DNA from: an uncultured Actinomycetota bacterium
GTDB taxonomy: Bacteria; Actinomycetota; Humimicrobiia; Humimicrobiales; Humimicrobiaceae
Direction of reading: 5' to 3'
Length of the DNA stretch: 64,000 nt
NCBI GenBank assembly: GCA_964603595.1
Contig: CAZRVN010000003.1
Span: 71,603-135,602, forward strand
Part shown: piece by piece, positions 9,032 to 64,000 of the stretch
Numbering within the stretch: position 1 is the stretch's first letter
How the letters are laid out: the number at the start of each line of letters is the position of its first letter
Notes under the pieces: generated by a model
What the model was told of the DNA's origin: nothing
What the model saw: only the letters and a program-made list of their open reading frames with translations
The model's database searches: none
Program-made: the position numbers and the translations under genes

Positions 9032-9071
9032 TAATTTTTATGTTTTTGCTTTTATACTTTGAAATGAGTCA

Positions 9072-17155: not shown

Positions 17156-17254
17156 GACGTTTTTTGTAAGATCGGCAGTAGCATCAGAAAGAGGTTAAAC
17201 AGATATATAAAAAATATGGAAAAGTTATAGGTTGAAAAAGGAAAAATCTCTGTC

Positions 17255-44706: not shown

Positions 44707-44725
44707 AACTTGAGGGAGGGTTAAC

Positions 44726-45844: not shown

Positions 45845-45877
45845 TTCATTTTCTTAAAATATTCATAAGGAGAAATT

Positions 45878-47254: not shown

Positions 47255-47312
47255 GTAGATTTGAATAGATTAATAAACCATGGTAGTTTTTAAGGAAAAT
47301 TAAGAAAATCTT

Positions 47313-48632: not shown

Positions 48633-48661
48633 AAATTGAAATATAAAAAACAACTTGAATT

Positions 48662-49537
48662 ATGAACAGGATGAAAAATAAAATATTAAACTTAATAGTA
48701 ATTATATCAACATTAATTTTGTGTATTTTTATACAATATGTTTTATATTTCCTGGATAAATCAATCTATCTGGGTAGTTTTTTGATGCTGATAGTAAGTG
48801 TCTTCTTTGTTTATATAGGTTTTTTTGATAAAGAGTTATTGATTTTAGATGGACTATTTATTATAGTCTGTCCTCTTTTGTTTATATTTAGTAAATTTGA
48901 TTTTTCTAATTATATCGCATTAAATCTAATTACCCTTTCTTTTCTGGCTGTGGCTATTTATTTATTAAAGGAAAAATTAATTTCGGGCTACCATAGATCA
49001 GGAAAAATTAATTTTAAGAAAAAGATTGGATATACCCTGGCTTGCCTGGGAATACTTTTTATTGTTTTATCTGTATTTAATAATCGGGAGGAAACAGCAA
49101 ATGCATTGCTTAAGTTCTTTCAGCCGGAAAAATATTATAAAGAAATAGATAAAGTAGAGTTAAATGGAGTTGAATATACAAATGAAATAAAAGTTGTTAT
49201 TAATAAACCGGAAAGCGGTGACAGCGTAAGTGGATTATTTGAACTGAAGGGCTGGGCAGCGGATTTGAGTGATATAGAAGATGCCTCCATAGATAAGATA
49301 TATGTATTTCTGAATAGTAAGCCGCAGGATGGAGGTATTTTTCTTGAGAGGGTTGATACCAAGATACGAAGGGAAGATATAGCTGAAGAATATGGTGAAA
49401 AATATAAAGATGCCGGGTATTATATGGTAATTAACTCCCGGAGACTTAAAGATGGGTTAAATAAAATTTATGTTTATGTGCATAGCAATTATTCTGGATG
49501 GGGATATGCTAAAGTAGAAGTTTATGTAAATAATTAG
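48662..49537 (+). CDS. membrane protein with C-terminal extracytoplasmic beta-rich domain (paralogue of the 57384-58733 C-terminal domain)
   Basis: About five N-terminal TMs, then a ~125-aa domain (…GLFELKGWAADLSDIEDASIDKIYVFLNSKP…RREDIAEEYGEKYKDAGYYMVINSRRLKDGLNKIYVYVHSNYSGWGYAKVEVYVNN). Confidence 0.4.
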   Translation: MNRMKNKILNLIVIISTLILCIFIQYVLYFLDKSIYLGSFLMLIVSVFFVYIGFFDKELLILDGLFIIVCPLLFIFSKFDFSNYIALNLITLSFLAVAIYLLKEKLISGYHRSGKINFKKKIGYTLACLGILFIVLSVFNNREETANALLKFFQPEKYYKEIDKVELNGVEYTNEIKVVINKPESGDSVSGLFELKGWAADLSDIEDASIDKIYVFLNSKPQDGGIFLERVDTKIRREDIAEEYGEKYKDAGYYMVINSRRLKDGLNKIYVYVHSNYSGWGYAKVEVYVNN

Positions 49538-49561: not shown

Positions 49562-50287
49562 TCAGCCTTCTTTCTTTAATACAATTATCATTGACATCTC
49601 TATTTTCTTAAACAATATATATTTTTCAAAGATTTTTAATAAAGGAACTAATTTGTTATATAAACTTAAAAATTTTTCATTGATAACGCTTCTCCTCAGG
49701 ATAAAACCGTTTAAAATCCATCCAAAAATTGCCGTAAAATTAAAATAATGTGATTCTATTAATTTAAATTCTGTATTTTTTAATATCCTGTCTATATCTT
49801 TTTTATTATATCTTCTCAGGTGGCCAACGCTTTTATCAATAATATTATACAGGTATTTATGGGCAGGAATCAGAAGGATAAGGTTTCCATTTGCGTTTAA
49901 GACATTATGTATATTCTGTATGACTTTAATATCATCTTTAATATGTTCTAAAACATTAATTGCAATGCATGTGTCAATATGAAAGTTACCGTCTGAAGAA
50001 TTCTTTATATTCTCCAGGTTAAAGTTTTCAACATAAACATTTTTAAAAGTTTTGTATCTGGATGATAATTTTTCCACGAAGGTTTCGTCAATATCAGATA
50101 AAATAACGCTGTTATTCCCGTTCTGGCTGATCAAGATTTTAGAAAAGCTGCCCAGACCCGAACCGATTTCAAGTACATCACCCTTTATAAAGGGCTTTAT
50201 TTCTTCATATATCCAGTCATAGAACCTGTTTGCTCTTTCTGAAAAAATCAGCTGGTTGTCTTTGCCTTCCGGTGAATATTCACTCAT
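49562..50287 (-). CDS. class I SAM-dependent methyltransferase
   Basis: VLEIGSGLGSFS motif I and VLEHIKD motif. 241 aa. Transcribed divergently from the ATP-grasp gene. Confidence 0.75.
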   Translation of the reverse strand: MSEYSPEGKDNQLIFSERANRFYDWIYEEIKPFIKGDVLEIGSGLGSFSKILISQNGNNSVILSDIDETFVEKLSSRYKTFKNVYVENFNLENIKNSSDGNFHIDTCIAINVLEHIKDDIKVIQNIHNVLNANGNLILLIPAHKYLYNIIDKSVGHLRRYNKKDIDRILKNTEFKLIESHYFNFTAIFGWILNGFILRRSVINEKFLSLYNKLVPLLKIFEKYILFKKIEMSMIIVLKKEG

Positions 50288-50726
50288 TTTTTTTAATTTA
50301 AATTAATTCTATATATTTTTACTTAAAATGGGCCTTAAATTCCTTGAGCCGATTTATTAATAAATAGATTTCTATCATTTTACCATTGTTTTTTGGTTTC
50401 ACAATAGAACTAATAAATTTTCGGAAAGATATTTTTATATAAAAAAATATATATAATATTTTATTGTGGCGGCAGCTAGTGATAGAATTTATAATATTAT
50501 TTTATTGCTAAATCAGGAAAAGTATCCGCGCCTGAATGAAAAAATGGATGCTTCTCATATTGCGGATTGCTGTTTTGGTTTTAAGCGAGGTTTTTTAATC
50601 TAAAGAGCTGATTTTACCTGCTTGTATATAATTATTTACCTTAGTTTTTAAAGGTTTAGTTTAATATTAATGCAGTAAGTGGCTATAATAGTAAGTATTA
50701 TGAATAGTTAGTTTATAAATAATTTA

Positions 50727-51878
50727 ATGGAATCTAAAAAAGTACTTATACTTGGGGTTACCCACCCCCAGATTGATGCGATATTATACTGCAGGAGAAT
50801 GGGATATGAAGTCCATGGCTTGAGTTATCACCGTGAAGGTATGGGTATACCTTATCTTGATTTTTTTGACAGGATTGATATAGCAGATAAAGATGGGGTT
50901 TTGGATTATGCCAGAGAGAATAAAGTAGACCTGATTTATTCAACCGGTTCGGATGTCGCTTTACCAACTGTTGCTTATGTGTCCAAAAAATTGAGTTTGC
51001 CCCGGGATATAACCTGTGACCAGGCAATGCTTTTAATTGATAAAAGCAACTTTAGAAGTTTTGCCCTTAAAAATGGCTTGAGCCCTGTTAAATTTAAAGT
51101 GGTTGAAAAACCAGGTGATTTTGAGGACTGGGATTATTTTCCAGCAATAATAAAGCCGGTTGACAGTCAGGGACAGCGGGGAGTCAGGAAGGTAGATAAC
51201 AGAAGGGAGATTGAAAAATATTTTCCCGTTGCCTTAGGGGAATCATTTAGCAAAAAGATAATAATCGAAGAATTTTTAGAGGGTAAGGAAATTAATATTT
51301 TAATATATATGTATAACGGGGAAGCCAGGTATAGTTTTGTAATTGACCGTGTACTGGTGGAAGAAACCATACCAGGGGGATATTCTGCCGGCATGCCGGT
51401 TGGTGTGGTAAAAAAACATATAGTTCCATCTTTTATACCGGAAGAGGACCAGAAAAAGATACGGAGGATTGCAGTTGAATTTATAAAGATGGCGGGCGTA
51501 AAATACGGTCCTGTTTATATACAGGGAAAATACAGGGATGGTGATTTTAAGCTTATTGAGGTTGCCCCAAGGTTAGATGGCGGGCATATCTGGAAAATAA
51601 TTAAATATAAATATGGTATTGATTTAATAAAAATTTGCTTTGACCGGCTCTTGGGAAAAATTAATTCAGGTGATGTATTCCCTCCAATAAGTGAAAAAGA
51701 TAATAAAAGGTATCAGATTGAATTCTTTCATCAGAAACCCGGCGAGGTTTTTAGGATACCCCCAGACTTTAAAAAAGATGAGTATCTCGAGTACAGTTTT
51801 TATTACAGGAATGGCGAAAAAGTGAAAATCTCAAATGGCCATTTTGAAAAAACCGGTTTCCGGATTACTGAAATATAA
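50727..51878 (+). CDS. ATP-grasp family ligase (carboxylate-amine ligase-like), copy 1
   Basis: Pre-ATP-grasp N-domain plus ATP-grasp core (…FPAIIKPVDSQGQRGVRKV…IIIEEFLEGKEINI…). 383 aa. Confidence 0.75.
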   Translation: MESKKVLILGVTHPQIDAILYCRRMGYEVHGLSYHREGMGIPYLDFFDRIDIADKDGVLDYARENKVDLIYSTGSDVALPTVAYVSKKLSLPRDITCDQAMLLIDKSNFRSFALKNGLSPVKFKVVEKPGDFEDWDYFPAIIKPVDSQGQRGVRKVDNRREIEKYFPVALGESFSKKIIIEEFLEGKEINILIYMYNGEARYSFVIDRVLVEETIPGGYSAGMPVGVVKKHIVPSFIPEEDQKKIRRIAVEFIKMAGVKYGPVYIQGKYRDGDFKLIEVAPRLDGGHIWKIIKYKYGIDLIKICFDRLLGKINSGDVFPPISEKDNKRYQIEFFHQKPGEVFRIPPDFKKDEYLEYSFYYRNGEKVKISNGHFEKTGFRITEI

Positions 51879-51971
51879 TATTTTTATTATAAAATTTAAA
51901 AAATATTATATAATTAAGTACTAATAAATTAATATAAAATCTAAAACTTTAAAAATAGGAGGGACTGCAAT

Positions 51972-52949
51972 ATGAAAAAATCGTTTGTTTTATTAGTTAT
52001 CGTAGCTGTATTTTCTATGTTTATATTCGGGGGTTGTGCTGGAAGTTCTCCGGAATCAAAAAAAGTAGTTGTTGCCCAGCAGTATGGCCTGGGGTATGCA
52101 CCTATTATGGTGATCCAGGAGAAAAAGCTGATTGAAAAGTATTATGAAGGTGCAGAGGTAGAGTGGGTTCAGCTTGGTTCAGGCGGTGCCATAAGAGAAG
52201 CTATGGCTGCAGGAACAGTGGATATAGGCAGTATGGGAGTCCCGCCTTTCCTTATATCATGGGATAAAGAATTGGGGTTCAGGGTTATATCGGCTCTCTG
52301 CAGGATGCCTCTTGGGCTTCAAACATACCATGAAGAGATAGAAACACTTGGTGACATAACACCTGATATGAAGATTGCCCTGCCGTCTCCGGGCAGCATC
52401 CAGCATATTCTTCTTTCTATGGCATGCGAGAAACAGCTGGGTGACCCGACTGCGCTGGATGACCAGATTATTGCCATGACTCACCCGGATGGTGCCAATG
52501 CGCTAATTAATAAAATTGAAATTGATGCCCATTATACTTCGCCGCCATATATTTTTATGGAATTAGAAACTGAAGGTATTCACCAGGTACTGGATGCAGA
52601 GGAAGACTGTTTTGAGGGACCTTTCACCTTCCTTGTAACCATAAGTACGGAAAAATTTAAGGAATCAAATCCTGAGCTTTTTACGGCAGTGGCAGATGCA
52701 CTGGATGAAGCAATTGTCTGGATAAACGAAAACCCTGATGAAGCTTCAGAGCTGCTGGCGGAAGGTATGGATATGGAAAAGGATGAAGTTTACAAACAGC
52801 TTACATGGACAGGAGTAGAATTTTCTAAAAATCCGGAAGGGATGCTTGAGTTTCTAGATTTCATGAAGGAATCTGGATATGTAGCGAAAACGACAGATGA
52901 TGTCTCCGAGCTTATCTGGGATAACCTTGATTACAAGGAAGCAAATTAA
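51972..52949 (+). CDS. ABC transporter substrate-binding lipoprotein, NMT1/SsuA/TauA-like (NitT/TauT family)
   Basis: Lipoprotein signal ending FGGC. Type-II periplasmic binding fold resembling sulfonate/nitrate/taurine binding proteins. Confidence 0.7.
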   Translation: MKKSFVLLVIVAVFSMFIFGGCAGSSPESKKVVVAQQYGLGYAPIMVIQEKKLIEKYYEGAEVEWVQLGSGGAIREAMAAGTVDIGSMGVPPFLISWDKELGFRVISALCRMPLGLQTYHEEIETLGDITPDMKIALPSPGSIQHILLSMACEKQLGDPTALDDQIIAMTHPDGANALINKIEIDAHYTSPPYIFMELETEGIHQVLDAEEDCFEGPFTFLVTISTEKFKESNPELFTAVADALDEAIVWINENPDEASELLAEGMDMEKDEVYKQLTWTGVEFSKNPEGMLEFLDFMKESGYVAKTTDDVSELIWDNLDYKEAN

Positions 52950-52977
52950 TATATAAGTAAAAGTAAAAAAGATAAAT

Positions 52978-53811
52978 ATGAAAGAAATAAATCCGGATTA
53001 TAAAAACCATAGTAAAATACGGCTGGCATTATCCAGTAAAAATTTAAGGGAGCTATGGATAAAAATAGGATTTATAGTAGGTGTTATGATTATATGGGAA
53101 GTAATTGCCCGTTTTGGCAGAGTTTCTTCTACACTGTTCCCACCGATATCTACTATTGGCATAGCCCTGTGGGATAATATTATAACAGGGGAGATTCTGG
53201 AGCATCTTTTATATTCGCTTTACCTTATTTTTATAGGAATAGGCATAGGGATTGTGCTAACCTTTATCCTGACTGTGCTTTATATGATCTATAAACCATT
53301 TGCGAATATACTGGATATAGTTATATCTATTATGCACCCCCTGCCAGGAATTGCGCTGCTGCCTATTATTATGTTGATAGTCGGTCTGGGGGCTAAGGCC
53401 ATAGTAATAGTAATTATACAGTCTGTAATATGGCCTGTTATGGTTAATTCAATTGCAGGATTCCGGTCTATACCAATTACCCAGGTAGAGTTGGGAAGAA
53501 ATATCGGTATGTCTGAATTACGGCTGGTATGTTCCGTTATGATTCCAAATGCTTTTCCACATATTTTTGCAGGTTTAAAGATTGCATGGTCAAGGAGCTG
53601 GAGAGCACTTATTGGTGCAGAAATGATTTTCGGCGCCACCGGGCTGGTAGGAGGACTTGGCTGGTATATTTATAAAAAAAGATATTTTTTGGAAATACCT
53701 GATGTTTTTGCGGGGCTTCTGGTAATCGTGGCTATTGGAATTATTGTAGAAGAAGTAGTAATGAAACAAATTGAAAAGAGGACCATAGTAAAATGGGGAG
53801 TAACTGTTTGA
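52978..53811 (+). CDS. ABC transporter permease (NitT/TauT family, BPD_transp_1)
   Basis: Six TMs with an EAA-like loop (…AWSRSWRALIGAEMIF…). Confidence 0.8.
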   Translation: MKEINPDYKNHSKIRLALSSKNLRELWIKIGFIVGVMIIWEVIARFGRVSSTLFPPISTIGIALWDNIITGEILEHLLYSLYLIFIGIGIGIVLTFILTVLYMIYKPFANILDIVISIMHPLPGIALLPIIMLIVGLGAKAIVIVIIQSVIWPVMVNSIAGFRSIPITQVELGRNIGMSELRLVCSVMIPNAFPHIFAGLKIAWSRSWRALIGAEMIFGATGLVGGLGWYIYKKRYFLEIPDVFAGLLVIVAIGIIVEEVVMKQIEKRTIVKWGVTV

Positions 53812-53812
53812 A

Positions 53813-54577
53813 ATGCGTAAGGTTTTGGAAGTTGAAGGTTTAAATAAAAGCTTCAGGATGAATAAAAAGAATATTCATGTATTGAATAATATATCTTTGT
53901 CACTTATAAAAAGAGACTTTTTAACCGTACTGGGCCCTTCGGGATGCGGGAAATCAACTCTTATAAGATGTATCTGTTGTTTCGAAAAGATTGACGGCGG
54001 TGTAATTAAAGTTGATGGAATGCTGGTAACCAGGCCCGGACCTGACCGGCTAATGGTTTTTCAGGAGTTTAATCAGCTTTTTCACTGGAAAACTGTCTGG
54101 GAGAATATTATTTATCCGCTTAATTTGAATCACAGGAATAAAACAAAAAAAGAAAGAGAAGAGATTGCCAGTAAATTTCTGGAGATGGTTAATTTAAAGG
54201 ATTTTAAAAATGCTTATCCCAGGCAGCTCTCCGGAGGAATGTGCCAGAGGGTTGCCATTGCAAGGGCTCTTGCAATCGGGCCTAAGATTCTGCTGATGGA
54301 TGAACCGTTCGGCGCACTGGATGCCCAGACAAGGAGCATTCTGCAGAAAGAACTGATGGATATATGGAATAAGACAGATATAACAATTATATTTATTACC
54401 CATAATATCCAGGAATCTATCCTTCTGGGAAATAAGATAATGGTACTTTCGCGGATTCCTGCGGCTATCAAGGTATTGGTTGATAATACCATACCATTTC
54501 CAAGAATGCCGGAAACCCCTGAATTTATGGATTTATGGAAGGAGCTTTATTCTACACTGGATGTTAAGAGATTTTAA
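53813..54577 (+). CDS. ABC transporter ATP-binding protein (SsuB/TauB-like)
   Basis: Walker A GPSGCGKST, signature LSGGMCQRVAIARAL and Walker B LLMDEP. Starts 2 nt after the permease. Confidence 0.9.
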   Translation: MRKVLEVEGLNKSFRMNKKNIHVLNNISLSLIKRDFLTVLGPSGCGKSTLIRCICCFEKIDGGVIKVDGMLVTRPGPDRLMVFQEFNQLFHWKTVWENIIYPLNLNHRNKTKKEREEIASKFLEMVNLKDFKNAYPRQLSGGMCQRVAIARALAIGPKILLMDEPFGALDAQTRSILQKELMDIWNKTDITIIFITHNIQESILLGNKIMVLSRIPAAIKVLVDNTIPFPRMPETPEFMDLWKELYSTLDVKRF

Positions 54578-54652
54578 TTAATATGGATTAATTTATAAAA
54601 ATTATTATTTGATAAGCAATATGTCTTTAAAGATAAATTAAATATAAGTCTT

Positions 54653-55618
54653 TTGGTTGGGAGTCAAGAGAATAGAATGTGTGATTTAAGTATTATTGTT
54701 CCTGTTTATAATTCAGAAAAAACAATAGGTGAAGTTGCCAGGCAGATTAAGAAAGCGCTGGATAGTAAGCTTGAATTTGAATTAATAATGGTAAATGATG
54801 GAAGTGCTGATTCCAGCTATAGAAAATGCAGAGAGCTTTTAGAATCAAATAATTTTATAAAATTTATAGATCTTTCCAAGAATTTTGGTCAGCACAATGC
54901 CATACTTGCAGGCCTTGGCTTTGCCAGGGGGGAATTTATAGCTGTTATGGATGATGACCTCCAGTCTCCTCCTGATAAAATATGGAAGTTAATAAATAAA
55001 ATAAGGGAGGGGTATGATGTTGTCTATGCTAATTACATTTACAAAAAACACAATCCGTTGAGGAACCTCGGAAGTAAAATTAATGGCCTGATGGAAACAA
55101 TTTTGCTTAAAAAACCAAAGGGTATAAAAACTTCCAGTTATTTTATAATAAGGAAATATATAGCAAAAGAGGTAATTAAATATAAGGGTCCTTATCCCTA
55201 TTTGGCCGGGTTGATTTTAAGGATTACAAATAATATAGGGATTGTTAATGTCGATCATAAAGAAAGACCATACGGAAAGTCTAATTACAGTTTTATAAAG
55301 CTATTAAAATTATGGGTCAACGGGTTTACTAATTTTTCTGTAAAACCACTGAGGATAGCATTGTTTATGGGCATGTTCCTGGCTTTTGCTGGATTTGCAT
55401 TATCTATCTTTTTTATAATAAGGAAGTTTATGAATCCAGAAATAGCAATTGGTTGGACTTCAATTATTGTAGCGGTATTTTTATTTTCCGGGATTCAATT
55501 AATCTCGGTAGGTTTGATTGGGGAATATGTGGGAAGGAGTTTTTTGTCCCTAAACAAGCAGCCGCAGTATGTGATTAAAGAAAAATATAACGTAGAAGAG
55601 CAAAAAAAAATTAAATAA
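54653..55618 (+). CDS. GT2 polyprenyl-phosphate sugar synthase (GtrB/ArnC/DPM1-like) with C-terminal TM pair
   Basis: LSIIVPVYNSEKTI…LIMVNDGSADSS is the GT2 domain. Two C-terminal TMs (…ALFMGMFLAFAGFALSIFFII… and …IIVAVFLFSGIQLISVGLIGEYVGR) are typical of GtrB/ArnC. Confidence 0.8.
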   Translation: MVGSQENRMCDLSIIVPVYNSEKTIGEVARQIKKALDSKLEFELIMVNDGSADSSYRKCRELLESNNFIKFIDLSKNFGQHNAILAGLGFARGEFIAVMDDDLQSPPDKIWKLINKIREGYDVVYANYIYKKHNPLRNLGSKINGLMETILLKKPKGIKTSSYFIIRKYIAKEVIKYKGPYPYLAGLILRITNNIGIVNVDHKERPYGKSNYSFIKLLKLWVNGFTNFSVKPLRIALFMGMFLAFAGFALSIFFIIRKFMNPEIAIGWTSIIVAVFLFSGIQLISVGLIGEYVGRSFLSLNKQPQYVIKEKYNVEEQKKIK

Positions 55619-55699
55619 TAGAGATAAAATAGATGGAAATCTTCACCCTAATATGATTTTTAAATGTCTATAAGAATTATAATTACATAAGCTATAATT

Positions 55700-57403
55700 A
55701 TGACATCTACCAAAAATGATAGTTTAAAGCCAGAGAATACTGGTAAAAAACTATCAAATTTTTTTTCAAAACCAATTTATGTCTTTATCATATCTATAAT
55801 TATTAATTCGTTATTATTTGCTTTATTTTTTTGTTTTGTTACGCCAAGGTTCCGGACTAATGATGATATTGCTATGATGGAATTTGCATCGGGCAGGATA
55901 AGCGGGCAACCCGGTGAATACCTGATTTATATCAATATTATAATAGGGAAATTACTTTCGTTTTTGTATTTGAGCTTTCCGGAGATTAACTGGTATCCGG
56001 TACTTTTTTATTTTATTCATTTTTTATCAATGACAGTTATATTTTATTGCCTGCTGCTAAAGAAAAAAAATATTTACGCTGTCCCAATTTATCTTTTATT
56101 ATTTTGCTTTTTAGAACTATACATGCTTGCGAATCTGCATTTTACAACAACAGCTTTCATTGCAGGACTGGCAGGTATTATCCTATTTTTTAAATATATT
56201 GATACAAAAGGGGCAAAATTTTACACTGCAATAGCAGGAAGTATCTTACTGCTGGCAGTTTCCGGGCTTATTAGAAAAAATGTATTCTATCTGGTGCTGG
56301 GGCTGTCTGCAGGGATGCTTGCATTAAAGTTTATAAAGAGGAAATCCTGGAAAATACCGGCGATACTGGTAATTATGCTGCTGGTGTTTGGCTTATTTAA
56401 TTTAATTAATGATTATTATTACCAGAAAGACGAGGACTGGAGTTTTTACCAGGAATATAATAAGTATATTGGAAAAATTTGCGGTTACCCTGATTTTAAT
56501 TACAGTGACAGAAATAGCAACGTCTATAATAGCGTGGGCTGGAGCAAAAATGATGTTAGTATGCTCAGGTCATGGTTTTTTTGTGACCTTGAGCTGTATT
56601 CTATGGAGAAGCTTGATTATGTAGTATCCAATATTAAGGTAGACAGGGGGGCAGGAGAGGTCTTTGGAATCCTCGGAAGAGAATTTGCTAAATTAGATAT
56701 AAAAGTTAAGTGGTTTACCGGTTTTTTTCTGGCCATTGCCCTTTTGCTATCCGACAGAAAAAAGAATAAATATATTTTTTCAGTAATATTTTGTTCTTTT
56801 ATAATGTCAGTTTATCTTTCTTATACGGGAAGACTTACGGACTGGGTTTTTTCTCCAATATTCATTTTTAATTGTGTTATAGCTGCTTTTTTTATTTGTA
56901 ATGAAAATGCAGACAGGAGTTTTAAAGTATTAAACAAAACAATTTTCCGGTTAATAGTGCTGGCAATATGCCTGGTGCTTGTCATCTTTACATTTATATC
57001 AGTATCAAAATACAGCAAAATAAATGAGGTAAAGCAGCAGCAACTGGAGCAGGTAATTGAGAAATTAAAAGGAGAAGACGACAGGATATATGTGAGCTGG
57101 GGAGCTACAGGCCTCCGTGATAAAGTTATATTTTTCTCTACTGATGAGTTAAAGAATTATCCTGGTACGATACAGCTTGGCTGGAGGGTTCATACTCCTT
57201 ATTACAACAGTACACTGGAAGGATATTCCGTTGATAACATATATACAGCAATCGTTGAAAGGGATGATATCTTTATGATTTGCAGAGAAGGCGGGGTTAA
57301 TATATTTAGTACTTTTATGTCCGAGCATTACGATAGAACTGTATCGGCTTCTCTTGTTTATGAAGTGGAGGACTTTCCGGTAAATGTGTATAAATTTAAA
57401 TGA
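55700..57403 (+). CDS. polytopic membrane protein with C-terminal soluble domain, possible GT-C-like transferase
   Basis: 567 aa, about 10 TMs. First loop has the acidic motif PRFRTNDDIAMMEF. C-terminal ~150 aa are hydrophilic. Confidence 0.35.
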   Translation: MTSTKNDSLKPENTGKKLSNFFSKPIYVFIISIIINSLLFALFFCFVTPRFRTNDDIAMMEFASGRISGQPGEYLIYINIIIGKLLSFLYLSFPEINWYPVLFYFIHFLSMTVIFYCLLLKKKNIYAVPIYLLLFCFLELYMLANLHFTTTAFIAGLAGIILFFKYIDTKGAKFYTAIAGSILLLAVSGLIRKNVFYLVLGLSAGMLALKFIKRKSWKIPAILVIMLLVFGLFNLINDYYYQKDEDWSFYQEYNKYIGKICGYPDFNYSDRNSNVYNSVGWSKNDVSMLRSWFFCDLELYSMEKLDYVVSNIKVDRGAGEVFGILGREFAKLDIKVKWFTGFFLAIALLLSDRKKNKYIFSVIFCSFIMSVYLSYTGRLTDWVFSPIFIFNCVIAAFFICNENADRSFKVLNKTIFRLIVLAICLVLVIFTFISVSKYSKINEVKQQQLEQVIEKLKGEDDRIYVSWGATGLRDKVIFFSTDELKNYPGTIQLGWRVHTPYYNSTLEGYSVDNIYTAIVERDDIFMICREGGVNIFSTFMSEHYDRTVSASLVYEVEDFPVNVYKFK

Positions 57404-58733
57404 AACAGCAGCGGATTTCATGCATATTTTTAAAAAAGAAATGAATAAAAAGGATAATATTATAAGAAATATAAGAAAAAATTTTATAGGCAGGAAGTTA
57501 AAAATATCTGCTATATTTTTATTTTTTGCTTTGCTGGTTGCTTCAATTGTTCTAAAGAATTTTTTAAATGTTGAAGCCTATTATTACCCGGCTTTTTTTG
57601 TTATTTTAATCTTTTTTTTATACCTCTGTTTTGAATTCGGATATAAAATATTTATATGGTTTTCCCTTATTTTAATGTTACTGGTTTTTCTTTTTATTTT
57701 AATTGATGAAAATCCTCTGTCAGAATTATCCGGGATATATGCTTATATTTTCCTGGGCTTAGGGGTGGCCGGTCTTCTTTTAGACTATGTAAGGGAAAAA
57801 GTTAAAAAAAATAGTCTTCATTTTAAGAATTATAAATTAATTTTATTATTTATTTTAATACTGGTAGTAATATCCCCATTTATTTTATATAGAAGTTATC
57901 TGCCCCATCTACCGGGTATTATTAAAAATATAAGTTACTATTATAAAAGGGATAGTATAAAGTTAGATGGCATTGAATTATCGGAGAATATAATAATTAA
58001 TGTAGAGTATCCTGAAAAAGATGTGATACATAAAGGGATAGCTAGAATTTCCGGATGGGCGGTCGGGGGCAATTCATCGGACGGTCCCGGTATAGATGAA
58101 ATTGAAGTTTTTATTGATGGCAAGCCCGGTATAGGAAAGCGTATTAATTTAGATTCTATCACTATAGAAGAGGGCCCGCCGGCTCGTGAGCTGGTAGAAA
58201 AATTTTACAGTGGTTGCTATGGCAGTAGTCCTGATGAAGAGACACTGGATTACTGGGTTGCAGAAATAGAATCAGGCAATGCCTCTTTTGATGATATGTT
58301 TAAAGATTTTATTTTAGATGAGGAATTTAAAAATAAAAATTTAAGTGATGAGGAATACGTAAATTTGCTGTACGGGTTACTGCTGAATAGAGAAGCTGAT
58401 AAAAATGGTCTCAATTACTGGCTAAATGAATTGAATGAAGAGAAGGATAGGGATATCATATTATATGATTTCTTGAATTCATTTGAGTATAGGGGTTTAT
58501 GCAGGAGATATTATAATGATATATCTGAATATCTTGTTTATGCGAACACAGGCATTAATTTAAAAAAGGAAGATATCGGCGATGAGTATGGAGAACAATT
58601 TGAAATGAGCGGGTTTAATTTCCTGTTTGATAGCAGGGAATTTAAAAATGGAAAGCATACCCTGTATATCTATGCACATTCCCCTGAGTTTGGGTGGGAT
58701 TATGAGATGGTGGAGATAAATATCGAAAATTAA
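57384..58733 (+). CDS. membrane protein with extracytoplasmic domain split by an inserted DUF4214 module
   Basis: About five TMs. The N-half of the shared domain is …ARISGWAVGG…IDEIEVFIDGKPG…. The DUF4214-like segment (FYSGCYG…DYWV…GLNYWLNEL…) lies at ≈58175-58520. The C-half of the domain is …DIGDEYGEQFEMSGFNFLFDSREFKNGKHTLYIYAHSPEFGWDYEMVEINIEN. Confidence 0.5.
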   Translation: MCINLNETAADFMHIFKKEMNKKDNIIRNIRKNFIGRKLKISAIFLFFALLVASIVLKNFLNVEAYYYPAFFVILIFFLYLCFEFGYKIFIWFSLILMLLVFLFILIDENPLSELSGIYAYIFLGLGVAGLLLDYVREKVKKNSLHFKNYKLILLFILILVVISPFILYRSYLPHLPGIIKNISYYYKRDSIKLDGIELSENIIINVEYPEKDVIHKGIARISGWAVGGNSSDGPGIDEIEVFIDGKPGIGKRINLDSITIEEGPPARELVEKFYSGCYGSSPDEETLDYWVAEIESGNASFDDMFKDFILDEEFKNKNLSDEEYVNLLYGLLLNREADKNGLNYWLNELNEEKDRDIILYDFLNSFEYRGLCRRYYNDISEYLVYANTGINLKKEDIGDEYGEQFEMSGFNFLFDSREFKNGKHTLYIYAHSPEFGWDYEMVEINIEN

Positions 58734-58740
58734 ATTAAAG

Positions 58741-59619
58741 GTGAATATGAATAAGAAGATTATTGATAAAAAAATATTCAGGTGTCCTGCCTGCGGGGAC
58801 GAAAACTTATTATTTGAAAAAAGCATAATAAAATGTGGTAAATGTGGTGCTTTTTATAAATTTAATAGCGGCAGATACTTTTTTGTAGATGGAGCCGTCT
58901 TACCTGATGATTTCGTTGATAAACTTAAATACAGATTTAAAAAATTCAGTGTTTTTTACACTTTTCTGATAAGAGTTATAAGTCCAGTTTTTACAGGTAA
59001 CCAGCTGGTTAGATTCGTTAAAGCTTACGTTACCGGGAGGGCTGGCACATTCCTTAATCTTGGCAGCGGGAACAGGTTGCTTTCACCTGAAATAATAAAT
59101 GTTGATATCTTCCCTTATAATAATGTCGATATCGTCGCAGATATCCAGAAGCTTCCTGTAGCAGATGAAAAAATCGATACTGTCATATGTTCTGCAGTTC
59201 TTGAACATGTAAAAAATCCTTATAGCGTGGTAAATGAAATTTACAGGGTATTGAAAGAAGGTGGCCGGACGTATTGTTATATGCCGTTTATATGCGGATT
59301 CCATGCAAGCCCGGATGACTATACAAGATTAACATATGAGGGCATGAAAGTTTTATTTAAGGACTTTAAGATTATTGAACTGGGAGTTGGCGGAGGTCCT
59401 ACAAGTGGATTATTGTGGGTGCTTCAGGAGTGGCTTGCAACATTGCTGTCTTTTGGATTAAAAAAGCTTCATTTCGTATTTTATGTTTTTTTTATGTTAA
59501 TAACCTTTCCATTAAAGTACTTTGATATTATTCTTTCAAAGTTTCCAACGGCAAGAAACATTGCCAGCGGGTTTTATATAATTGCAAGAAAAAAGAAGAA
59601 GGTTGGTAATAATATATGA
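58741..59619 (+). CDS. class I SAM methyltransferase with N-terminal Cys4 zinc-ribbon
   Basis: The N-terminal Cys4 segment is a C-x2-C…C-x2-C ribbon at ≈58783-58845. Methyltransf_11-like core (FLNLGSG…DTVICSAVLEHVKNP…LKEGG). Confidence 0.7.
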   Translation: MNMNKKIIDKKIFRCPACGDENLLFEKSIIKCGKCGAFYKFNSGRYFFVDGAVLPDDFVDKLKYRFKKFSVFYTFLIRVISPVFTGNQLVRFVKAYVTGRAGTFLNLGSGNRLLSPEIINVDIFPYNNVDIVADIQKLPVADEKIDTVICSAVLEHVKNPYSVVNEIYRVLKEGGRTYCYMPFICGFHASPDDYTRLTYEGMKVLFKDFKIIELGVGGGPTSGLLWVLQEWLATLLSFGLKKLHFVFYVFFMLITFPLKYFDIILSKFPTARNIASGFYIIARKKKKVGNNI

Positions 59620-59699
59620 AAAATTTTTATATATCTGTCAGGAATTAATAAGGACTAGTTTTTTATAATTAATTTAAGCTCGTTATAGCAGGTATTAAA

Positions 59700-60407
59700 A
59701 TGAAAAATATATACAGTAAAAGTTTTTTTGAAAGTAACACTGCATGGAAACTGGTTAAGAAATACGAAGTAGATAAATTAATAAGATATTCAATAGACGA
59801 CCGGAATGTGATGGAGATAGGACTTGGAAACGGCTTTACGACAGAATTATTATCAGATCATTTTCAAAAGGTTATTGCTGTTGATATCTCAGGAGGAGTG
59901 ATTGAATATGTAAAGAAAAAATTGGTTACAAGAAAGAATATTGTATATATAAATAGTCCTATTGATAAACTGGATTTTAATTTTACGGTTTATAATTTTT
60001 ATTTGGGGCACATTTTAGAGCACCTGGAATTTCCAGTAAAGTTATTGCTCAATATAAAAAAAATAATAAAAAGCGAAACTATAGGTTATATATCTGTACC
60101 AAATAGTAATTCAATACACAGACAAATAGGGGTGGAGATGGGACTGCTTGAGAGCGTGAATACCCTGAATGAAAATGATATAAAATTTGGGCACAGGAGA
60201 TTATACAATTTGAAAAAAATTAAAAATCATATAAAAAAAGCGGGATTTAATATATTAAAGATTGGCGGTTGTTTTTTAAAGACGATGACTTATGAACAGA
60301 TCAACAGGTTTTGCAGTGAAGAGCTTATAAAAGGGTTCATAGAGATAGCCGATAAGTACCCGGAAATAAGTGGAGATATTTATGCAATTGTTAAAAAAGG
60401 TAATTAA
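59700..60407 (+). CDS. class I SAM-dependent methyltransferase
   Basis: MEIGLGNGFTTE motif I and HILEHLEFP motif. 235 aa. Confidence 0.7.
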   Translation: MKNIYSKSFFESNTAWKLVKKYEVDKLIRYSIDDRNVMEIGLGNGFTTELLSDHFQKVIAVDISGGVIEYVKKKLVTRKNIVYINSPIDKLDFNFTVYNFYLGHILEHLEFPVKLLLNIKKIIKSETIGYISVPNSNSIHRQIGVEMGLLESVNTLNENDIKFGHRRLYNLKKIKNHIKKAGFNILKIGGCFLKTMTYEQINRFCSEELIKGFIEIADKYPEISGDIYAIVKKGN

Positions 60408-61590
60408 TTCTTATACAGGTAAAATTCTAATTTTAGGTGCAGGAGTTTACCAGATCCCTTTAATAAAAAAAGCAAAGGAAATGGGGCTGAAAACAATTGT
60501 TGTAAGTTGCAGGGGTAATTACCCAGGATTTAATATAGCAGATAAGAATTATTATGTAGATACGACCAGTTCTGAGGAGGTACTTGATATTGCCAGAAAA
60601 GAGCATATTAGTGGAATATGTACAACGGGCTCAGATGTGCCTATGGTGACACTGGGGAAAGTTGCTGATGAATTAAAACTGGTGGGTATTACTGAAAAAT
60701 CGGGGATTTTAAGTACCAATAAAGTAAGAATGAAGGAAAGATTTAAAAAATATAATGTGAGAGCGGCTAATTTTATGAAGGCAAGCAGTGCCAGAAACAC
60801 TAAAGAAGCAGTTAATGTTTTTAAACTGCCTGTAGTTTTTAAAGTCGTGGATAGCTCCGGCAGCAGGGGGGTATTTATTGTCAGTAAAATTAAAGAGATA
60901 GATAATATAATTAAGGCAGCGCGTTCCGAAACAAAGAAAAATTATTTCATTGTTGAGGAGTTTCTGGAAGGTAGGGAGTTTGGAGCGCAGGCACTTGTTT
61001 ATAATAATGAGGTCAAGTTTATTCTCCCTCATGGTGATTTTGTTTTCAAGGCAAATACGAATATTCCTGTGGGCCATTTTGTACCGATTAAATTGAAAAA
61101 AAATATTGTTAGAGATTTATATACACAATTAAAAAGGTCGATAAGGTCATTAGAGCTAAATAATTGCGCAATTAATGCAGACTTTATTTTAAAGGATAAT
61201 AAAGTCTTCGTCCTGGAAATTGGAGCAAGGGCAGGAGCAACCTGCCTTTCAGAACTGGTTTCTATTTATTTTGGCTTTAATTATTACCAGTTGATTATAA
61301 ATATGGCTCTGGGTAAAGAACCTGATTTTCGTTTTAGGAGAAAGCTGCCAAATGCAAGCATGCTTCTTTTTTCTAATAAGTCTGGGAATATCAGGAAGAT
61401 AATAGATAAAAATATACCTGATGAAGATATAGTCGAGATTAAGTTTGATTATGGTGTGGGGGACAGGGTTAAAAAGTTTAGGGTCGGGTCAGATAGGATA
61501 GGGCATATAATTGTTAAGGGGAATACTTTAAAAGATGCCTTAAATTTACTGAGAAAAGTTAGAAAAAATATTTTCATTCAAGTTGAATGA
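60370..61590 (+). CDS. ATP-grasp family ligase, copy 2 (paralogue of 50727-51878)
   Basis: …FKLPVVFKVVDSSGSRGVFIV…YFIVEEFLEGREFGAQ… has the same architecture as copy 1. Overlaps the upstream methyltransferase by 38 nt and the downstream aminotransferase by 8 nt. Confidence 0.75.
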   Translation: MEIFMQLLKKVINSYTGKILILGAGVYQIPLIKKAKEMGLKTIVVSCRGNYPGFNIADKNYYVDTTSSEEVLDIARKEHISGICTTGSDVPMVTLGKVADELKLVGITEKSGILSTNKVRMKERFKKYNVRAANFMKASSARNTKEAVNVFKLPVVFKVVDSSGSRGVFIVSKIKEIDNIIKAARSETKKNYFIVEEFLEGREFGAQALVYNNEVKFILPHGDFVFKANTNIPVGHFVPIKLKKNIVRDLYTQLKRSIRSLELNNCAINADFILKDNKVFVLEIGARAGATCLSELVSIYFGFNYYQLIINMALGKEPDFRFRRKLPNASMLLFSNKSGNIRKIIDKNIPDEDIVEIKFDYGVGDRVKKFRVGSDRIGHIIVKGNTLKDALNLLRKVRKNIFIQVE

Positions 61591-62803
61591 TTTTTGGTTG
61601 AAAAGCGAATTTTATAGAAATTCATTAAAGAAAGAGATTTTTAGTATGGATAATATAAATATTCCATTTAACAGGCCTTCCATACTGGGGAAGGAATTGG
61701 AGTATATAAGACAGGCGGTAGAAAGCGGGAAGATTAGCGGGGATGGGATTTTTAGCAGAAAATGTGCAGAAATGATGCATGAAAGATATGGGGTGAAAAA
61801 AGTGCTGCTGACAACATCCTGCTCGACTGCCCTGGATATGTCTTCTATTTTAATAAATATTAAACATGGAGATGAGGTTATTTTACCTTCATATACCTTT
61901 GTTTCTACGGCAAATTCGTTTTATTCAAGAGGTGCGAAATTAAAGTTCGTAGATATAAGAGAAGATACTTTAAATATTGATGAAAGTAAAATTAAAGAAG
62001 CCATAACGCCACAAACCAGAGCTATAGCAGTTGTTCATTATGCGGGGGTATCCTGTGAGATGGATAGAATTTTAAAGATTGCGAGGAAATATGATTTATA
62101 TGTTATCGAGGATGCTGCACAGGGTATCGGATCAAAGTATAAAAAAAATTACCTTGGAACCATGGGGGATATTGGATGCATGAGTTTTCATGAAACCAAA
62201 AATATTACCTGTGGAGAGGGAGGGGCAATCCTTATAAACAACAAAAAATTTTTCGAAAGAGCCGAGATTATAAGAGAGAAAGGAACTGATAGAAGTAAAT
62301 TCTTCAGGGGTGAGGTTGATAAATATACTTGGGTGGATGTCGGCTCTTCATATTTACCATCTGAGATTTTATCGGCTTTTTTATATGCACAGCTTGAAAA
62401 TATAGGGTTGATTATAAACAGCAGGAAAGAATTATGGAGATATTATTATGATAATCTTGAAGGGCTGGAAAAAGAAGGTTTTATTAGAAGGCCTATCGTC
62501 CCCCGGGATTGCAGCCATAACGGGCACCTTTTTTATATTATTGTTAATAGTGAGGTTACAAGAGACCGGCTGCTTGAATATCTTAAAAATAAGGGAATAC
62601 TTGCGATTTTCCATTATCTGCCACTGCATCTCTCATCAATGGGCAGGAGAATGGGATACAGGGAAGGCCAGCTTCCTGTTACCGAAAAAATTTCTTCACG
62701 GCTGGTCAGGCTACCACTATTTTATGGCCTAACCAGGGGCGAGCAGGATACAGTGCTCGGTAATCTGGAAGATTTTTTTAAAAATAAAAATCCGGGTTAT
62801 TAA
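61583..62803 (+). CDS. DegT-family PLP-dependent aminotransferase, WecE-like (dTDP-4-keto-6-deoxyhexose 4-aminotransferase-type)
   Basis: …VIEDAAQGIGSKY…DIGCMSFHETKNITCGEGGAILINN… is the SFHETKN-type PLP-lysine motif, as in WecE/ArnB-like enzymes. Confidence 0.85.
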   Translation: MNDFWLKSEFYRNSLKKEIFSMDNINIPFNRPSILGKELEYIRQAVESGKISGDGIFSRKCAEMMHERYGVKKVLLTTSCSTALDMSSILINIKHGDEVILPSYTFVSTANSFYSRGAKLKFVDIREDTLNIDESKIKEAITPQTRAIAVVHYAGVSCEMDRILKIARKYDLYVIEDAAQGIGSKYKKNYLGTMGDIGCMSFHETKNITCGEGGAILINNKKFFERAEIIREKGTDRSKFFRGEVDKYTWVDVGSSYLPSEILSAFLYAQLENIGLIINSRKELWRYYYDNLEGLEKEGFIRRPIVPRDCSHNGHLFYIIVNSEVTRDRLLEYLKNKGILAIFHYLPLHLSSMGRRMGYREGQLPVTEKISSRLVRLPLFYGLTRGEQDTVLGNLEDFFKNKNPGY

Positions 62804-62838: not shown

Positions 62839-63597
62839 TTGAAAGACGGGGATATATACAGATATATTCTGGAAAATAAAATACCGGAAAAGCACTGGTG
62901 GTACAGGGTCAGGAATAATCTTATATATATGGTATTTAAAAAAATATTAAAATTCAGGGAAGAAAAAAATAAAAAAATACTTGATGTGGGAAGCGGTTAC
63001 GGCCAGGCATTTCATGTATTACAGAAATTTGGAGATATTTACAGCGTGGATAGTAATAAGAGTTGCACGGATTACCAGAAAAAAATCTATAAGAATGTTG
63101 TTGTATGGAACAGTGAATTCCCTGACAGCAATTCTTCAAATTATACTTATGATATAATTTGCATGTTTGATTTTCTTGAACATGTAAAGGACCCCGGCAG
63201 GATATTAGAATATTCCTACAAAATATTAAAAAAGGGAGGCTTTTTATTAATAACTGTTCCGGCATATCAATGGATGTGGACGGATTATGACGTTAAAGCG
63301 GGGCATTTTAAAAGATATTTAAGGGGCGGTTTAATATCGGAAGTTAAGAGGGCTGGTTTTAAGAGCATATATTCAACTTATTTTATGAGTCTCCTGTTTA
63401 TTTCTGCTGTAATAGTTAGAAAGATTATTGATCCCATTAGAAAGAAAAGTAAAAAGTCGCCAGTTCCTGAATTAGAGAGCCCCCCGGGTTTTTTAAATGA
63501 AACTCTATACCATATTTTTAATCTGGAAGCTCCACTAATTGGGAATAAAATATTTATACCCTTTGGTCTATCGATCCTGGGGACATTTAAGAAATGA
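62839..63597 (+). CDS. class I SAM-dependent methyltransferase
   Basis: ILDVGSGYGQ motif I and FDFLEHVKDPGRIL…LKKGG motifs. TTG start. Confidence 0.7.
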   Translation: MKDGDIYRYILENKIPEKHWWYRVRNNLIYMVFKKILKFREEKNKKILDVGSGYGQAFHVLQKFGDIYSVDSNKSCTDYQKKIYKNVVVWNSEFPDSNSSNYTYDIICMFDFLEHVKDPGRILEYSYKILKKGGFLLITVPAYQWMWTDYDVKAGHFKRYLRGGLISEVKRAGFKSIYSTYFMSLLFISAVIVRKIIDPIRKKSKKSPVPELESPPGFLNETLYHIFNLEAPLIGNKIFIPFGLSILGTFKK

Positions 63598-63634: not shown

Positions 63635-64000
63635 ATGAAGAGTTTTAATAATCTATTTATTTTAGAAAAAAAAAGTGATTTAAAAGATTATTTTCTAATA
63701 AATTTAATCACCTTAATTATATCATTTACTTTTGCTTCCACTTTTATATTTTTAAGAGCTGGCCTGGAAGATAAGAATATATTTCTGACTCTCAAGGTTC
63801 TAATTGTCAGCTATTTTATAATTTTATTACCGCTTTTTTTATCAGGTGTATTGGGTTTTATCCGGAAAAAAGATATATCAAGTTTTATACGATATGAACC
63901 ATTCTTTTTACTGGCAGGTTTATTATTTGTAATTTTTATTTCTTTTGTATCACCTGTTATAAATTTGATAATATTTATTGAAGCTTCTGGTCTTATTTTC
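63635..64000 (+). CDS. hypothetical polytopic membrane protein, 3' partial (runs off the window; absent from the ORF track because no stop is reached)
   Basis: ATG at 63635, then 122 sense codons with no stop to position 64000. Three or more hydrophobic helices (MKSFNNLFILEKK…). Confidence 0.4.
   Translation, partial: MKSFNNLFILEKKSDLKDYFLINLITLIISFTFASTFIFLRAGLEDKNIFLTLKVLIVSYFIILLPLFLSGVLGFIRKKDISSFIRYEPFFLLAGLLFVIFISFVSPVINLIIFIEASGLIF

Follow-up and report, generated by a model that had tools for sequence, protein, structure and literature searches.

What do two ATP-grasp ligases join when they are encoded, together with a sugar aminotransferase and several methyltransferases, in a bacterial surface-glycan region? 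This question is raised by a 64,000-nucleotide stretch of contig CAZRVN010000003.1 (positions 71,603 to 135,602; assembly GCA_964603595.1), hereafter the window, whose closest relatives are labelled as metagenome-assembled genomes of uncultured Actinomycetota. A prediction made from the letters of the stretch 49562-62803 had described duplicated modules of a methyltransferase plus an ATP-grasp ligase, one of them fused by overlaps to a WecE-like aminotransferase, which would attach an amino acid or amine to a sugar. We found every one of the open reading frames (ORFs) on which this original prediction was built, as well as the Ugd, the second DegT aminotransferase and the GNAT protein that it had named within the window. 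Its domain assignments also stood, while the overlap with WecE and the duplication of the module did not, and the 8 kb that separate one ligase (AG1) from the other (AG2) had been passed over. These 8 kb carry an ATP-binding cassette (ABC) importer, a family 2 glycosyltransferase (GT2) and a putative GT-C glycosyltransferase, and these genes are the conserved partners of the ligases. With regard to the interpretation, acylation of a 4-amino sugar gained support, in contrast to uronate amidation, the analogy with Cj1438 and the methyltransferase cassette. On balance, we lean towards an Arn-like pathway, encoded from 50727 to beyond 64000, that decorates a surface glycan or glycoprotein by way of a lipid carrier.

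The genes concerned are listed below in window coordinates (MT, methyltransferase; SAM, S-adenosylmethionine; SBP, substrate-binding protein; LAL, L-amino-acid ligase).

49562-50287, minus strand: MT1, class I SAM methyltransferase, divergent from AG1 (Pfam Methyltransf_12/23)
50727-51878, plus strand: AG1, 383 aa, ATP-grasp carboxylate-amine ligase with predicted LAL/PurT-like fold (Pfam ATP-grasp_4, Dala_Dala_lig_C)
51972-52949, plus strand: SBP, lipoprotein of a NitT/TauT (SsuA/TauA-like) ABC importer (Pfam NMT1_2, NMT1; lipobox FGGC)
52978-53811, plus strand: ABC importer permease (Pfam BPD_transp_1; SsuC/TauC/SaoP-like, below cut-offs)
53813-54577, plus strand: ABC importer ATPase (Pfam ABC_tran; SaoA/NtrCD/TauB-like, below cut-offs)
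54677-55618, plus strand: GT2, ArnC/GtrB/PgfS-like, predicted polyprenyl-phosphate glycosyltransferase with two C-terminal transmembrane helices
55700-57403, plus strand: MEM567, 567-aa polytopic membrane protein with predicted GT-C glycosyltransferase fold
57384-58733, plus strand: DUF4214 membrane-anchored protein (Pfam DUF4214), its gene overlapping that of MEM567 by 20 nt
58747-59619, plus strand: MTz, zinc ribbon plus class I methyltransferase (Pfam Methyltransf_11)
59700-60407, plus strand: MT2, class I methyltransferase overlapping the start of AG2 (Pfam Methyltransf_23/11)
60382-61590, plus strand: AG2, L-amino-acid-ligase-type ATP-grasp protein (Pfam LAL_C2, ATP-grasp_3/4, PylC-like_N)
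61646-62803, plus strand: WecE-type dTDP-4-keto-6-deoxyhexose 4-aminotransferase (NCBIfam PRK11706, TIGR02379)
62839-63597, plus strand: MT3, class I methyltransferase (Pfam Methyltransf_23)
63635-64000, plus strand: 5' part of the gene for a large DUF4214 protein (833 aa), which runs off the window (gene call L001 13254-15755)
25674-26660, plus strand: RmlB, dTDP-glucose 4,6-dehydratase, predicted to supply the WecE substrate; outside 49562-62803 (NCBIfam TIGR01181)
23823-25169: Ugd; a second Ugd is encoded just downstream of the window

Both ligases exceeded the Pfam cut-offs for ATP-grasp domains, as had been proposed (AG1: PF13535, 41.5 with a cut-off of 27, and PF07478, 36 with a cut-off of 24; AG2: PF02655, 42.9, PF13535, 41.9, and PF07478, 41.1). 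AG2 additionally matched LAL_C2, the C-terminal domain of LALs, with a score of 42.7 (cut-off 29.4), and fell slightly short of the cut-off for PylC-like_N (25.9 against 27). No Pfam LAL_C2 match was obtained with AG1; its whole-chain fold resembles the LAL BL00235. A Foldseek search with the AlphaFold2 model of AG1 (predicted local distance difference test, pLDDT, 92.9) retrieved PDB entry 4DIM as the nearest structure (4e-28), followed by the LALs BL00235 (3VOT; template-modelling (TM) score 0.83), BacD/YwfE and RizA and by PurT (TM score 0.77-0.78). Judged from sequence and modelled fold, AG1 and AG2 are thus L-amino-acid-ligase/PurT-like proteins. All the residues invariant in the respective families were retained (K143, Q148-G152, E181, E188, Q266, E278 and R282 in AG1; K154, E192, E193, N265, D267, E279 and R283 in the family alignment of AG2), and by analogy they may be assigned to ATP or Mg binding. 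The 4DIM protein, from Anaerococcus prevotii, is approximately 50% identical to AG2 (E 6e-92); it was deposited as a 'phosphoribosylglycinamide synthetase' and has no assigned function. Since the PurD score of AG2 is far under the cut-off, the deposited name is unsupported for this family, to which 4DIM belongs by sequence, and it looks wrong.

A housekeeping role as PurT, PurK, PurD or Ddl was rejected, because every NCBIfam equivalog score of AG2 was far under its cut-off (purT, 48.8 against 502; purK, 48.2 against 318; purD, 61.3 against 288; Ddl, 53 against 246) and those of AG1 were lower still. Together with the glycan-related synteny, this bears out the earlier reading of both genes as non-housekeeping, biotin carboxylase included. 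The TupA-like ATP-grasp family was absent among the Pfam matches of AG1 and AG2 at E <= 0.01. The two ligases are paralogous, as had been stated (26% identity across about 320 residues, E 3e-20); their sequences identify them as old paralogues from separate old families and not as products of a recent duplication.

The likeliest start of AG2 is the ATG at 60382, which is preceded by GGAG 6 nt upstream. A database protein identical to AG2 (P0001) comprises 402 aa and begins at M5 of the 406-aa ORF, with which an exact look-up gave no match. The overlap between MT2 and AG2 is real, given that no start codon lies downstream of the MT2 stop, although its length is 26 nt and not the 38 nt first given. 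The 8-nt overlap claimed between AG2 and WecE turned out to be an artefact of longest-ORF calling, as it needs a TTG at 61583 that lacks a Shine-Dalgarno sequence. In ORF 61583-62803, residue 27 is the first with homology to WecE, and public gene calls begin at ATG 61646; with this likely start, a gap of 55 nt separates the two genes, and a fusion of AG2 to WecE by overlap was rejected.

The gene neighbourhoods of both ligase families provide the main evidence on what the ligases may act upon. In close relatives, the gene order of the window is retained (L007, and L009 over the part covered, from the ATPase gene to MT3; 62-89% identity), and a further locus (L092) retains the segment MT1(-)/AG1/SBP/permease/ATPase. 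A fourth one (L008, 55-71% identity) shows the rearranged, compact order MT2-AG2-SBP-permease-ATPase-GT2-AG1-WecE-DUF4214, so that AG1, AG2, the importer, GT2, WecE and the large DUF4214 protein remain linked through the rearrangement; MT1, MTz and MT3 were not found on this 10-kb contig.

The AG2 family has more than 2,100 database homologues, and relatives are encoded in at least 308 GTDB species genomes, with Anaerobutyricum hallii DSM 3353 and several Paenibacillus species as cultured carriers. Neighbourhoods were counted over 82 related loci, with overlaps taken from longest-ORF calls. An ArnC-like GT2 gene was present in 59 of the 82, directly adjoining the ligase gene on the same strand in 50, of which 32 overlap, and a DegT aminotransferase gene was present in 45, adjoining in 21 (18 overlapping), mainly in Paenibacillus and Cohnella. 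Taken together, GT2 or DegT directly adjoins the AG2 relative in 70/82 loci, and Ugd lies within 10 kb in 2/82. Genes for YfhO-type GT-C proteins, Wzx-like flippases, RmlA and RmlB-like proteins also recur near AG2 relatives, the YfhO genes accompanying the GT2-AG2 pair in 18 Firmicutes loci. We also observed three Clostridia loci (L065, L075, L078) with two or three GT2/ATP-grasp pairs each, in which the extra ATP-grasp proteins are 26-39% identical to AG2; such multiple pairs suggest that the acyl group has diversified inside single genomes.

WecE or DegT adjoins both ATP-grasp families across phyla. A gut metagenome locus (L089) encodes, in this order, a MEM567-like protein, WecE (55%), a reductase, an AG1-like ligase (41%), another MEM567-like protein and a GT2 (38%). 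In Labilibacter sediminis (L091), an AG1-like gene (40%) is followed by genes for WecE (53%) and for Glyco_transf_56, a WecF-type 4-acetamido-4,6-dideoxygalactose (Fuc4NAc) transferase. In the gene order of the enterobacterial common antigen pathway, the acetyltransferase WecD comes after WecE and before WecF. By this analogy, the ATP-grasp gene of L. sediminis would stand in WecD's place, and nothing else hints so directly at N-acylation of the 4-amino group by these ligases. Of the two options offered originally, the conserved WecE/DegT neighbourhoods of both families fit acylation of a 4-amino-4,6-dideoxyhexose, while the scarcity of Ugd near AG2 relatives speaks against amidation of a uronic acid.

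The importer encoded between AG1 and GT2 belongs, at family level only, to the NitT/TauT (SsuA/TauA-like) type, and its ligand is a prediction drawn from this family. The SBP scored under both relevant NCBIfam cut-offs (SsuA_fam, 89.2 against 163.5; TauA, 48.7 against 304) and matched SsuA (2X26, 2e-07) and TauA (6SSY, 5.5e-07) in the PDB. A metagenome scan seeded with the SBP returned 249 relatives, the best 80 of which were examined. They revealed a recurrent operon made up of an RmlB-like gene, sometimes a LysR regulator, WecE, a short ArnC-like GT2, a LAL-type ATP-grasp, SBP, permease and ATPase, often with a PMT_2 GT-C gene nearby; the full set, PMT_2 GT-C included, is exemplified by L159. 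The ATP-grasp of this operon constitutes a third family (AG3), 25-30% identical to AG1 and AG2. It lies directly upstream of the SBP gene in 30 of the 55 loci with enough upstream sequence, and where it does so, GT2 precedes the ATP-grasp in 24/26 and WecE precedes GT2 in 11/16. Of 60 metagenomic loci, 41 have an ATP-grasp gene of one type or another no more than 3 kb away from the ABC operon; the GC content of these loci (0.30-0.56) indicates that they stem from diverse organisms. Based on these counts (41/60 and 30/55), this SBP subfamily is a habitual partner of ATP-grasp ligases. The recurrent units among the loci examined were GT2(ArnC-like)-ATPgrasp, DegT-ATPgrasp and WecE-GT2-ATPgrasp-ABC importer.

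In the absence of a LAL-type ligase, relatives of the SBP nonetheless adjoin ATP-grasp genes of other types (L097 7994-10506; L124 6792-7841; L099 5517-7946), which are either ATPgrasp_Ter-like and followed by a gene for a DUF7033 protein, or PylC-like, and one such SBP group also has a large PTPS_related membrane protein. The partnership of importer and ATP-grasp is accordingly broader than the sugar cassette. As a separate observation, the importer stretch of the window (52001-54000) has a G+C content of 0.40, compared with 0.29-0.34 in its flanks, which could reflect either stronger conservation or separate acquisition.

Supply of the amino sugar is accounted for within the window. The aminotransferase exceeded both curated NCBIfam cut-offs, in line with its original naming (PRK11706, 584.1 bits with a cut-off of 375; TIGR02379, 557.7 with a cut-off of 434.85; residues 27-399 of the long ORF), and is by sequence a dTDP-4-amino-4,6-dideoxyhexose transaminase of the WecE type, with Gal or Glc configuration of the product. 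An RmlA-like nucleotidyltransferase is also encoded, as is a bona fide RmlB (TIGR01181, 487 bits with a cut-off of 365), and therefore the WecE substrate can be made. RmlB homologues of 56-58% identity were found in the loci with the WecE-GT2-ATPgrasp-ABC cassette.

As for the steps on the lipid carrier, GT2 (start at 54677 according to the public gene call; the longest ORF begins at 54653) aligned with PDB entries of ArnC (9HWJ, residues 12-310, E 3e-46) and GtrB (5EKP, residues 5-315, E 4.5e-46), that is, over its full length including the transmembrane hairpin. Its best NCBIfam matches, PgfS (186.6) and ArnC (171.3), remained under the equivalog cut-offs of 500 and 529. Sequence comparison thus makes GT2 a member of the broad GtrB/ArnC-like family of polyprenyl-phosphate GT2 enzymes and not an orthologue of ArnC or PgfS. 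MEM567 had no match in Pfam, NCBIfam or PDB sequences, even with a 10-sequence profile; its GT-C membrane fold was recognised solely through a fold search with an AlphaFold2 model (14-sequence alignment; pLDDT 72.7; predicted TM score 0.76). In GT-C enzymes, the catalytic acidic motif sits just after the first transmembrane helix, in the first extracytoplasmic loop. Residues D55-D56 of MEM567 occupy the position just after this helix, in a loop with pLDDT <50, and are invariant in homologues down to 20% identity. In one MEM567 homologue (P0253, 670 aa), DUF4214 forms part of the same chain, and this domain may contribute to the GT-C step, as an accessory or by binding the acceptor. The shorter DUF4214 protein (57384-58733) is conserved in L007 and L009, and an 811-aa counterpart of the large DUF4214 protein sits after WecE in L008. 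More generally, DUF4214 proteins were seen with the module in every close relative (in L008 at 7415-9850).

The three methyltransferases named originally (49562-50287, 59700-60407 and 62839-63597) were confirmed by Pfam as class I SAM enzymes, and the region holds a fourth one, MTz, that had been missed. The 'duplicated methyltransferase plus ATP-grasp module' was rejected, as the similarity of MT1 to MT2 is generic for class I enzymes (25% identity, E 2e-5; MT1 is nearer to MT3), the two ligases come from separate old families and adjacency to methyltransferase genes is lineage-restricted. Nor did the arrangement MT-ATPgrasp-aminotransferase-MT emerge as a conserved cassette: MT2 adjoins AG2 in four closely related loci only, namely the window, L007, L009 and L008. 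The divergent MT1(-)/AG1(+) layout is retained in L092 and absent in L008, and the part of MT1 in the pathway is uncertain; MTz and MT3 are conserved in L007 and L009. PDB searches with MT1, MT2 and MT3 returned no informative relatives and no sugar N-methyltransferase of the TylM1/DesVI type, the best match of MT2 being the hypothetical protein 2P7H (7e-22) and MT3 showing weak similarity to small-amine N-methyltransferases.

In the pathway that we propose, RmlB would produce dTDP-4-keto-6-deoxyglucose, which WecE would convert into dTDP-4-amino-4,6-dideoxyhexose, the chemistry being that expected of the two observed families. Each ATP-grasp ligase, as synteny and fold suggest, would convert a carboxylate into an acyl phosphate and go on to form an amide bond: one of them would acylate the 4-amino group of the sugar, and the second would either extend the acyl or aminoacyl group, yielding a dipeptidyl-amido sugar, or make an alternative acyl form. 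One ligase substrate would be brought from outside the cell by the SsuA/TauA-type importer; a sulfonate- or amine-bearing acid is our best guess at it, and a weak one, made at family level. Three or four methyltransferases might N- or O-methylate the product. GT2, whose family and fold are those of ArnC/GtrB-like enzymes, would then move the modified sugar, its presumed substrate, to undecaprenyl phosphate (Und-P), and after flipping across the membrane the sugar would be transferred to an outside acceptor by MEM567, probably together with the DUF4214 protein. A wider formulation, which we put forward tentatively as possible rather than probable, is that a widespread and undescribed pathway delivers an imported solute, possibly a sulfonated or otherwise unusual acid, via a LAL-type ligase to the 4-amino group of dTDP-4-amino-4,6-dideoxyhexose and thence to the envelope by ArnC-like and GT-C enzymes, and that in this lineage the second ligase and the methyltransferases build a methylated peptidyl- or sulfo-acyl amido sugar.

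Several points weigh against this proposal. Beyond family and fold it draws on gene neighbourhood, and all enzyme substrates in it are predicted, as are the order of the ligases, the roles of the methyltransferases, the ligand of the importer and the acceptor. The NCBIfam scores of the importer are under every equivalog cut-off, and most Firmicutes loci of the AG2 family have no such importer, so that import is not intrinsic to this family. The model of MEM567 is of moderate confidence, with pLDDT <50 in the putative catalytic loop (residues 51-59), and no flippase was identified inside the module. Moreover, AG1 and AG2 are as near to PurT and PurK as to LALs, and hence the acyl donor could be a small acid instead of an amino acid. 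Finally, with one Ugd in the window and another just downstream, amidation of a uronate by one of the ligases is conceivable in this organism.

The last two points lead to the explanations with which the proposed pathway has to be compared. If the ligases were PurT/PurK-like in function, they would place formate, acetate, bicarbonate or another small acid, and no amino acid, on the sugar amine, an unlikely reading in our view. The reaction would then correspond to the formyltransferase step of ArnA, with ATP as its driving force, and would only ready the sugar for the ArnC-like GT2. Foldseek does place PurT beside the amino-acid ligases, and the names within the NitT/TauT SBP family include binders of small anions such as nitrate, bicarbonate binders also being part of this family. 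ArnC, in turn, takes an N-formylated sugar (PMC12690121). The presence in AG2 of LAL_C2, typical of LALs, and the low PurT, PurK and PurD equivalog scores argue otherwise, and the combination of two ligases with three or four methyltransferases suggests a more elaborate acyl group in this lineage. Amidation of a uronic acid, in which one or both ATP-grasp proteins would activate the C6 carboxylate of glucuronic acid (GlcA), in a nucleotide sugar or in the growing glycan, and add a possibly imported amine, is distinctly unlikely. The two Ugd genes would provide the uronate, the taurine-type similarity of the SBP would suit an amine nucleophile, and an ATP-grasp amidation of GlcA exists in Cj1438C (PMC11800379). 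The neighbourhoods nevertheless point elsewhere, since near AG2 relatives Ugd (2/82) is far rarer than DegT (45) and GT2 (59), WecE orthologues flank AG1 relatives, once along with a WecF-type Fuc4NAc transferase, and the WecE-GT2-ATPgrasp-ABC cassette gave no Ugd match in a scan that included a Ugd query; besides, neither ligase is TupA-like.

It is very unlikely, lastly, that the ligases act elsewhere than on a sugar, making a free dipeptide, modifying the imported solute or adding residues to an acceptor that is a protein, for instance a DUF4214 protein, or a polymer, with the link to sugar genes reflecting co-regulation. BacD, RizA and BL00235, their closest characterised structural relatives, make free dipeptides, and the importer also adjoins ATPgrasp_Ter-like and PylC-like types, with no adjacent WecE or GT2 match there. 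Set against this are the ORF overlaps or short gaps with GT2 or DegT in 70/82 AG2 loci, the fixed order WecE-GT2-ATPgrasp-SBP over loci spanning GC contents of 0.30-0.56, and the persistence of the linkage of AG1 and AG2 to WecE and GT2 after the rearrangement in L008. The acylation of a 4-amino sugar on its way to a lipid carrier is the reading retained in what follows.

Further features of the window were recorded. Just upstream, 43099-49537 holds a second, parallel amino-sugar decoration set, with a GT1-like protein, a PseH-like GNAT (44185-44706), the second DegT (44726-45844), an FAD oxidoreductase similar to PRK07208/UDP-galactopyranose mutase (45878-47254), a membrane protein of 439 aa with a weak match to the LA_3751/LA_3752 putative glycosyltransferase family (47313-48632) and, as its last gene, one for a protein of 291 aa, the C-terminal domain of which is similar to the C-terminal domain of the DUF4214 protein encoded at 57384-58733 (33% over 108 aa, E 1e-13). 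The genes for a hydantoinase/oxoprolinase pair, A and B (15098-18871; Hydant_A_N, Hydantoinase_A, Hydantoinase_B), stand amid the glycan genes, for which they are unusual company, with a Germane-domain protein encoded on one side and an epimerase on the other, and a radical SAM/SPASM protein (31347-32324) is flanked by GT4 glycosyltransferases. Two genes for Wzy_C-type polymerases or ligases (21579-23192 and 41796-43109), two initiating Bac_transf genes (11015-11587 and 33567-35030) and a MurJ-like flippase are also present, and more than one glycan is probably assembled from the 64-kb region. Promoter and terminator scans over 49-64 kb gave only background-level matches; a promoter-like site at 50661-50689 precedes AG1, such sites occurring at chance frequency across the region, and public annotations include a 45-aa ORF at 50466-50603 inside the 439-nt intergenic region between MT1 and AG1.

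Amino-acylated amino sugars are known from a flagellin glycan (PMC5207245), and the roles of the enzymes behind it are still to be assigned (PMC5207246). The two or three LAL-type ATP-grasp families described here are candidate acylating enzymes, one of them with a crystal structure (4DIM) that lacks a function, and they appear tied to an ArnC/ArnT-like lipid-carrier pathway. Cultured carriers, namely the gut commensal Anaerobutyricum hallii and Paenibacillus, make the prediction directly testable. The frequent presence of a dedicated importer suggests that surface structures are built partly from scavenged solutes, with consequences for recognition between host and microbe, for phage receptors and for resistance to cationic antimicrobials. 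If this holds true, what many uncultured bacteria and gut Firmicutes import would directly shape the chemistry of their surface.

Among known systems, the Arn pathway, by which lipid A is modified with L-Ara4N (PmrHFIJKLM: ArnB, ArnA, ArnC, ArnT), resembles the proposed one in its DegT-family 4-aminotransferase, the N-acylation, the loading onto Und-P by ArnC, which accepts an N-acylated (formylated) 4-amino sugar (PMC12690121), and the transfer outside by the GT-C enzyme ArnT. It differs in using UDP-4-amino-4-deoxyarabinose (UDP-Ara4N) instead of a dTDP-6-deoxyhexose (WecE/RmlB), and a formyltransferase instead of two ATP-grasp ligases. In the present system, neither a deformylase nor ArnE/F was seen, methyltransferases and an ABC importer are added, GT2 scores 171 against the ArnC cut-off of 529, and the host, probably a monoderm, would have no lipid A. 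Three-component systems, in which GtrB/CsbB, a flippase and a GT-C protein (YfhO, GtrC, PgfM) glycosylate teichoic acids, O-antigens and surface proteins (PMC5836110, PMC7389260), likewise pair a GtrB-like GT2 with a GT-C, and the best NCBIfam match of our GT2 is PgfS. These systems transfer plain glucose (Glc), N-acetylglucosamine (GlcNAc) or galactose (Gal) from UDP-sugars, and no co-mention of them with a dedicated aminotransferase, ATP-grasp ligase or importer was found in the literature.

The ligases share fold and domain order with the LALs BacD/YwfE, RizA and BL00235 and with 4DIM, and AG2 shares LAL_C2. LALs, however, join two free amino acids in secondary metabolism, whereas the conserved partners here are sugar-modifying enzymes, and synteny points to an amino sugar as the probable acceptor rather than a free L-amino acid. 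Cj1438C, the C-terminal amidoligase of Cj1438 from the Campylobacter jejuni HS:2 capsule, is a TupA-like ATP-grasp that shares its chain with a GT2; it activates the carboxylate of GlcA for the attachment of serinol-P or ethanolamine-P (PMC11800379). It too makes an amide on a surface-glycan sugar; AG1 and AG2, in contrast, are stand-alone, LAL/PurT-like and WecE-associated, so that the analogy drawn originally leads to a different subfamily.

A genetic precedent is provided by the flagellin 'sulfonated peptidylamido-glycan' of Clostridioides difficile type B, in which 3-amino-3,6-dideoxygalactose (Fuc3N) is N-acylated by Gly-Ala and carries a taurine-like N-substituent and optional methylation (PMC5207245). 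Disruption of the ATP-grasp gene CDR20291_0245, two genes from a DegT-type gene in the cluster, removes this moiety (PMC5207246). An ATP-grasp (PF13535) and a DegT sugar aminotransferase thus occur together in CDR20291_0244-0247 as they do here, a likeness drawn from descriptions and not from sequences, and an amino-acid-acylated amino-dideoxyhexose with a taurine-like unit has its parallel in ligases encoded beside an importer of the taurine/sulfonate family. The C. difficile cluster differs by its 3-aminotransferase (FdtB-like, for Fuc3N), its FemAB-like and ornithine cyclodeaminase-like proteins and its cytoplasmic glycosyltransferases acting on flagellin, as compared with a 4-aminotransferase, two ATP-grasps and an Und-P/GT-C route in our locus, where no FemAB or ornithine cyclodeaminase domain was found between 43 and 64 kb. 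No description of the GT2-ATPgrasp, DegT-ATPgrasp and WecE-GT2-ATPgrasp-ABC cassettes was found in the searchable literature, the coverage of which leaves out the 2009 amidoligase survey of Iyer et al. N-acylated amino sugars, Arn- or Gtr-like carrier routes and the involvement of an ATP-grasp in C. difficile were thus already known, whereas the cassettes, the core of which is found in hundreds of genomes, are apparently new.

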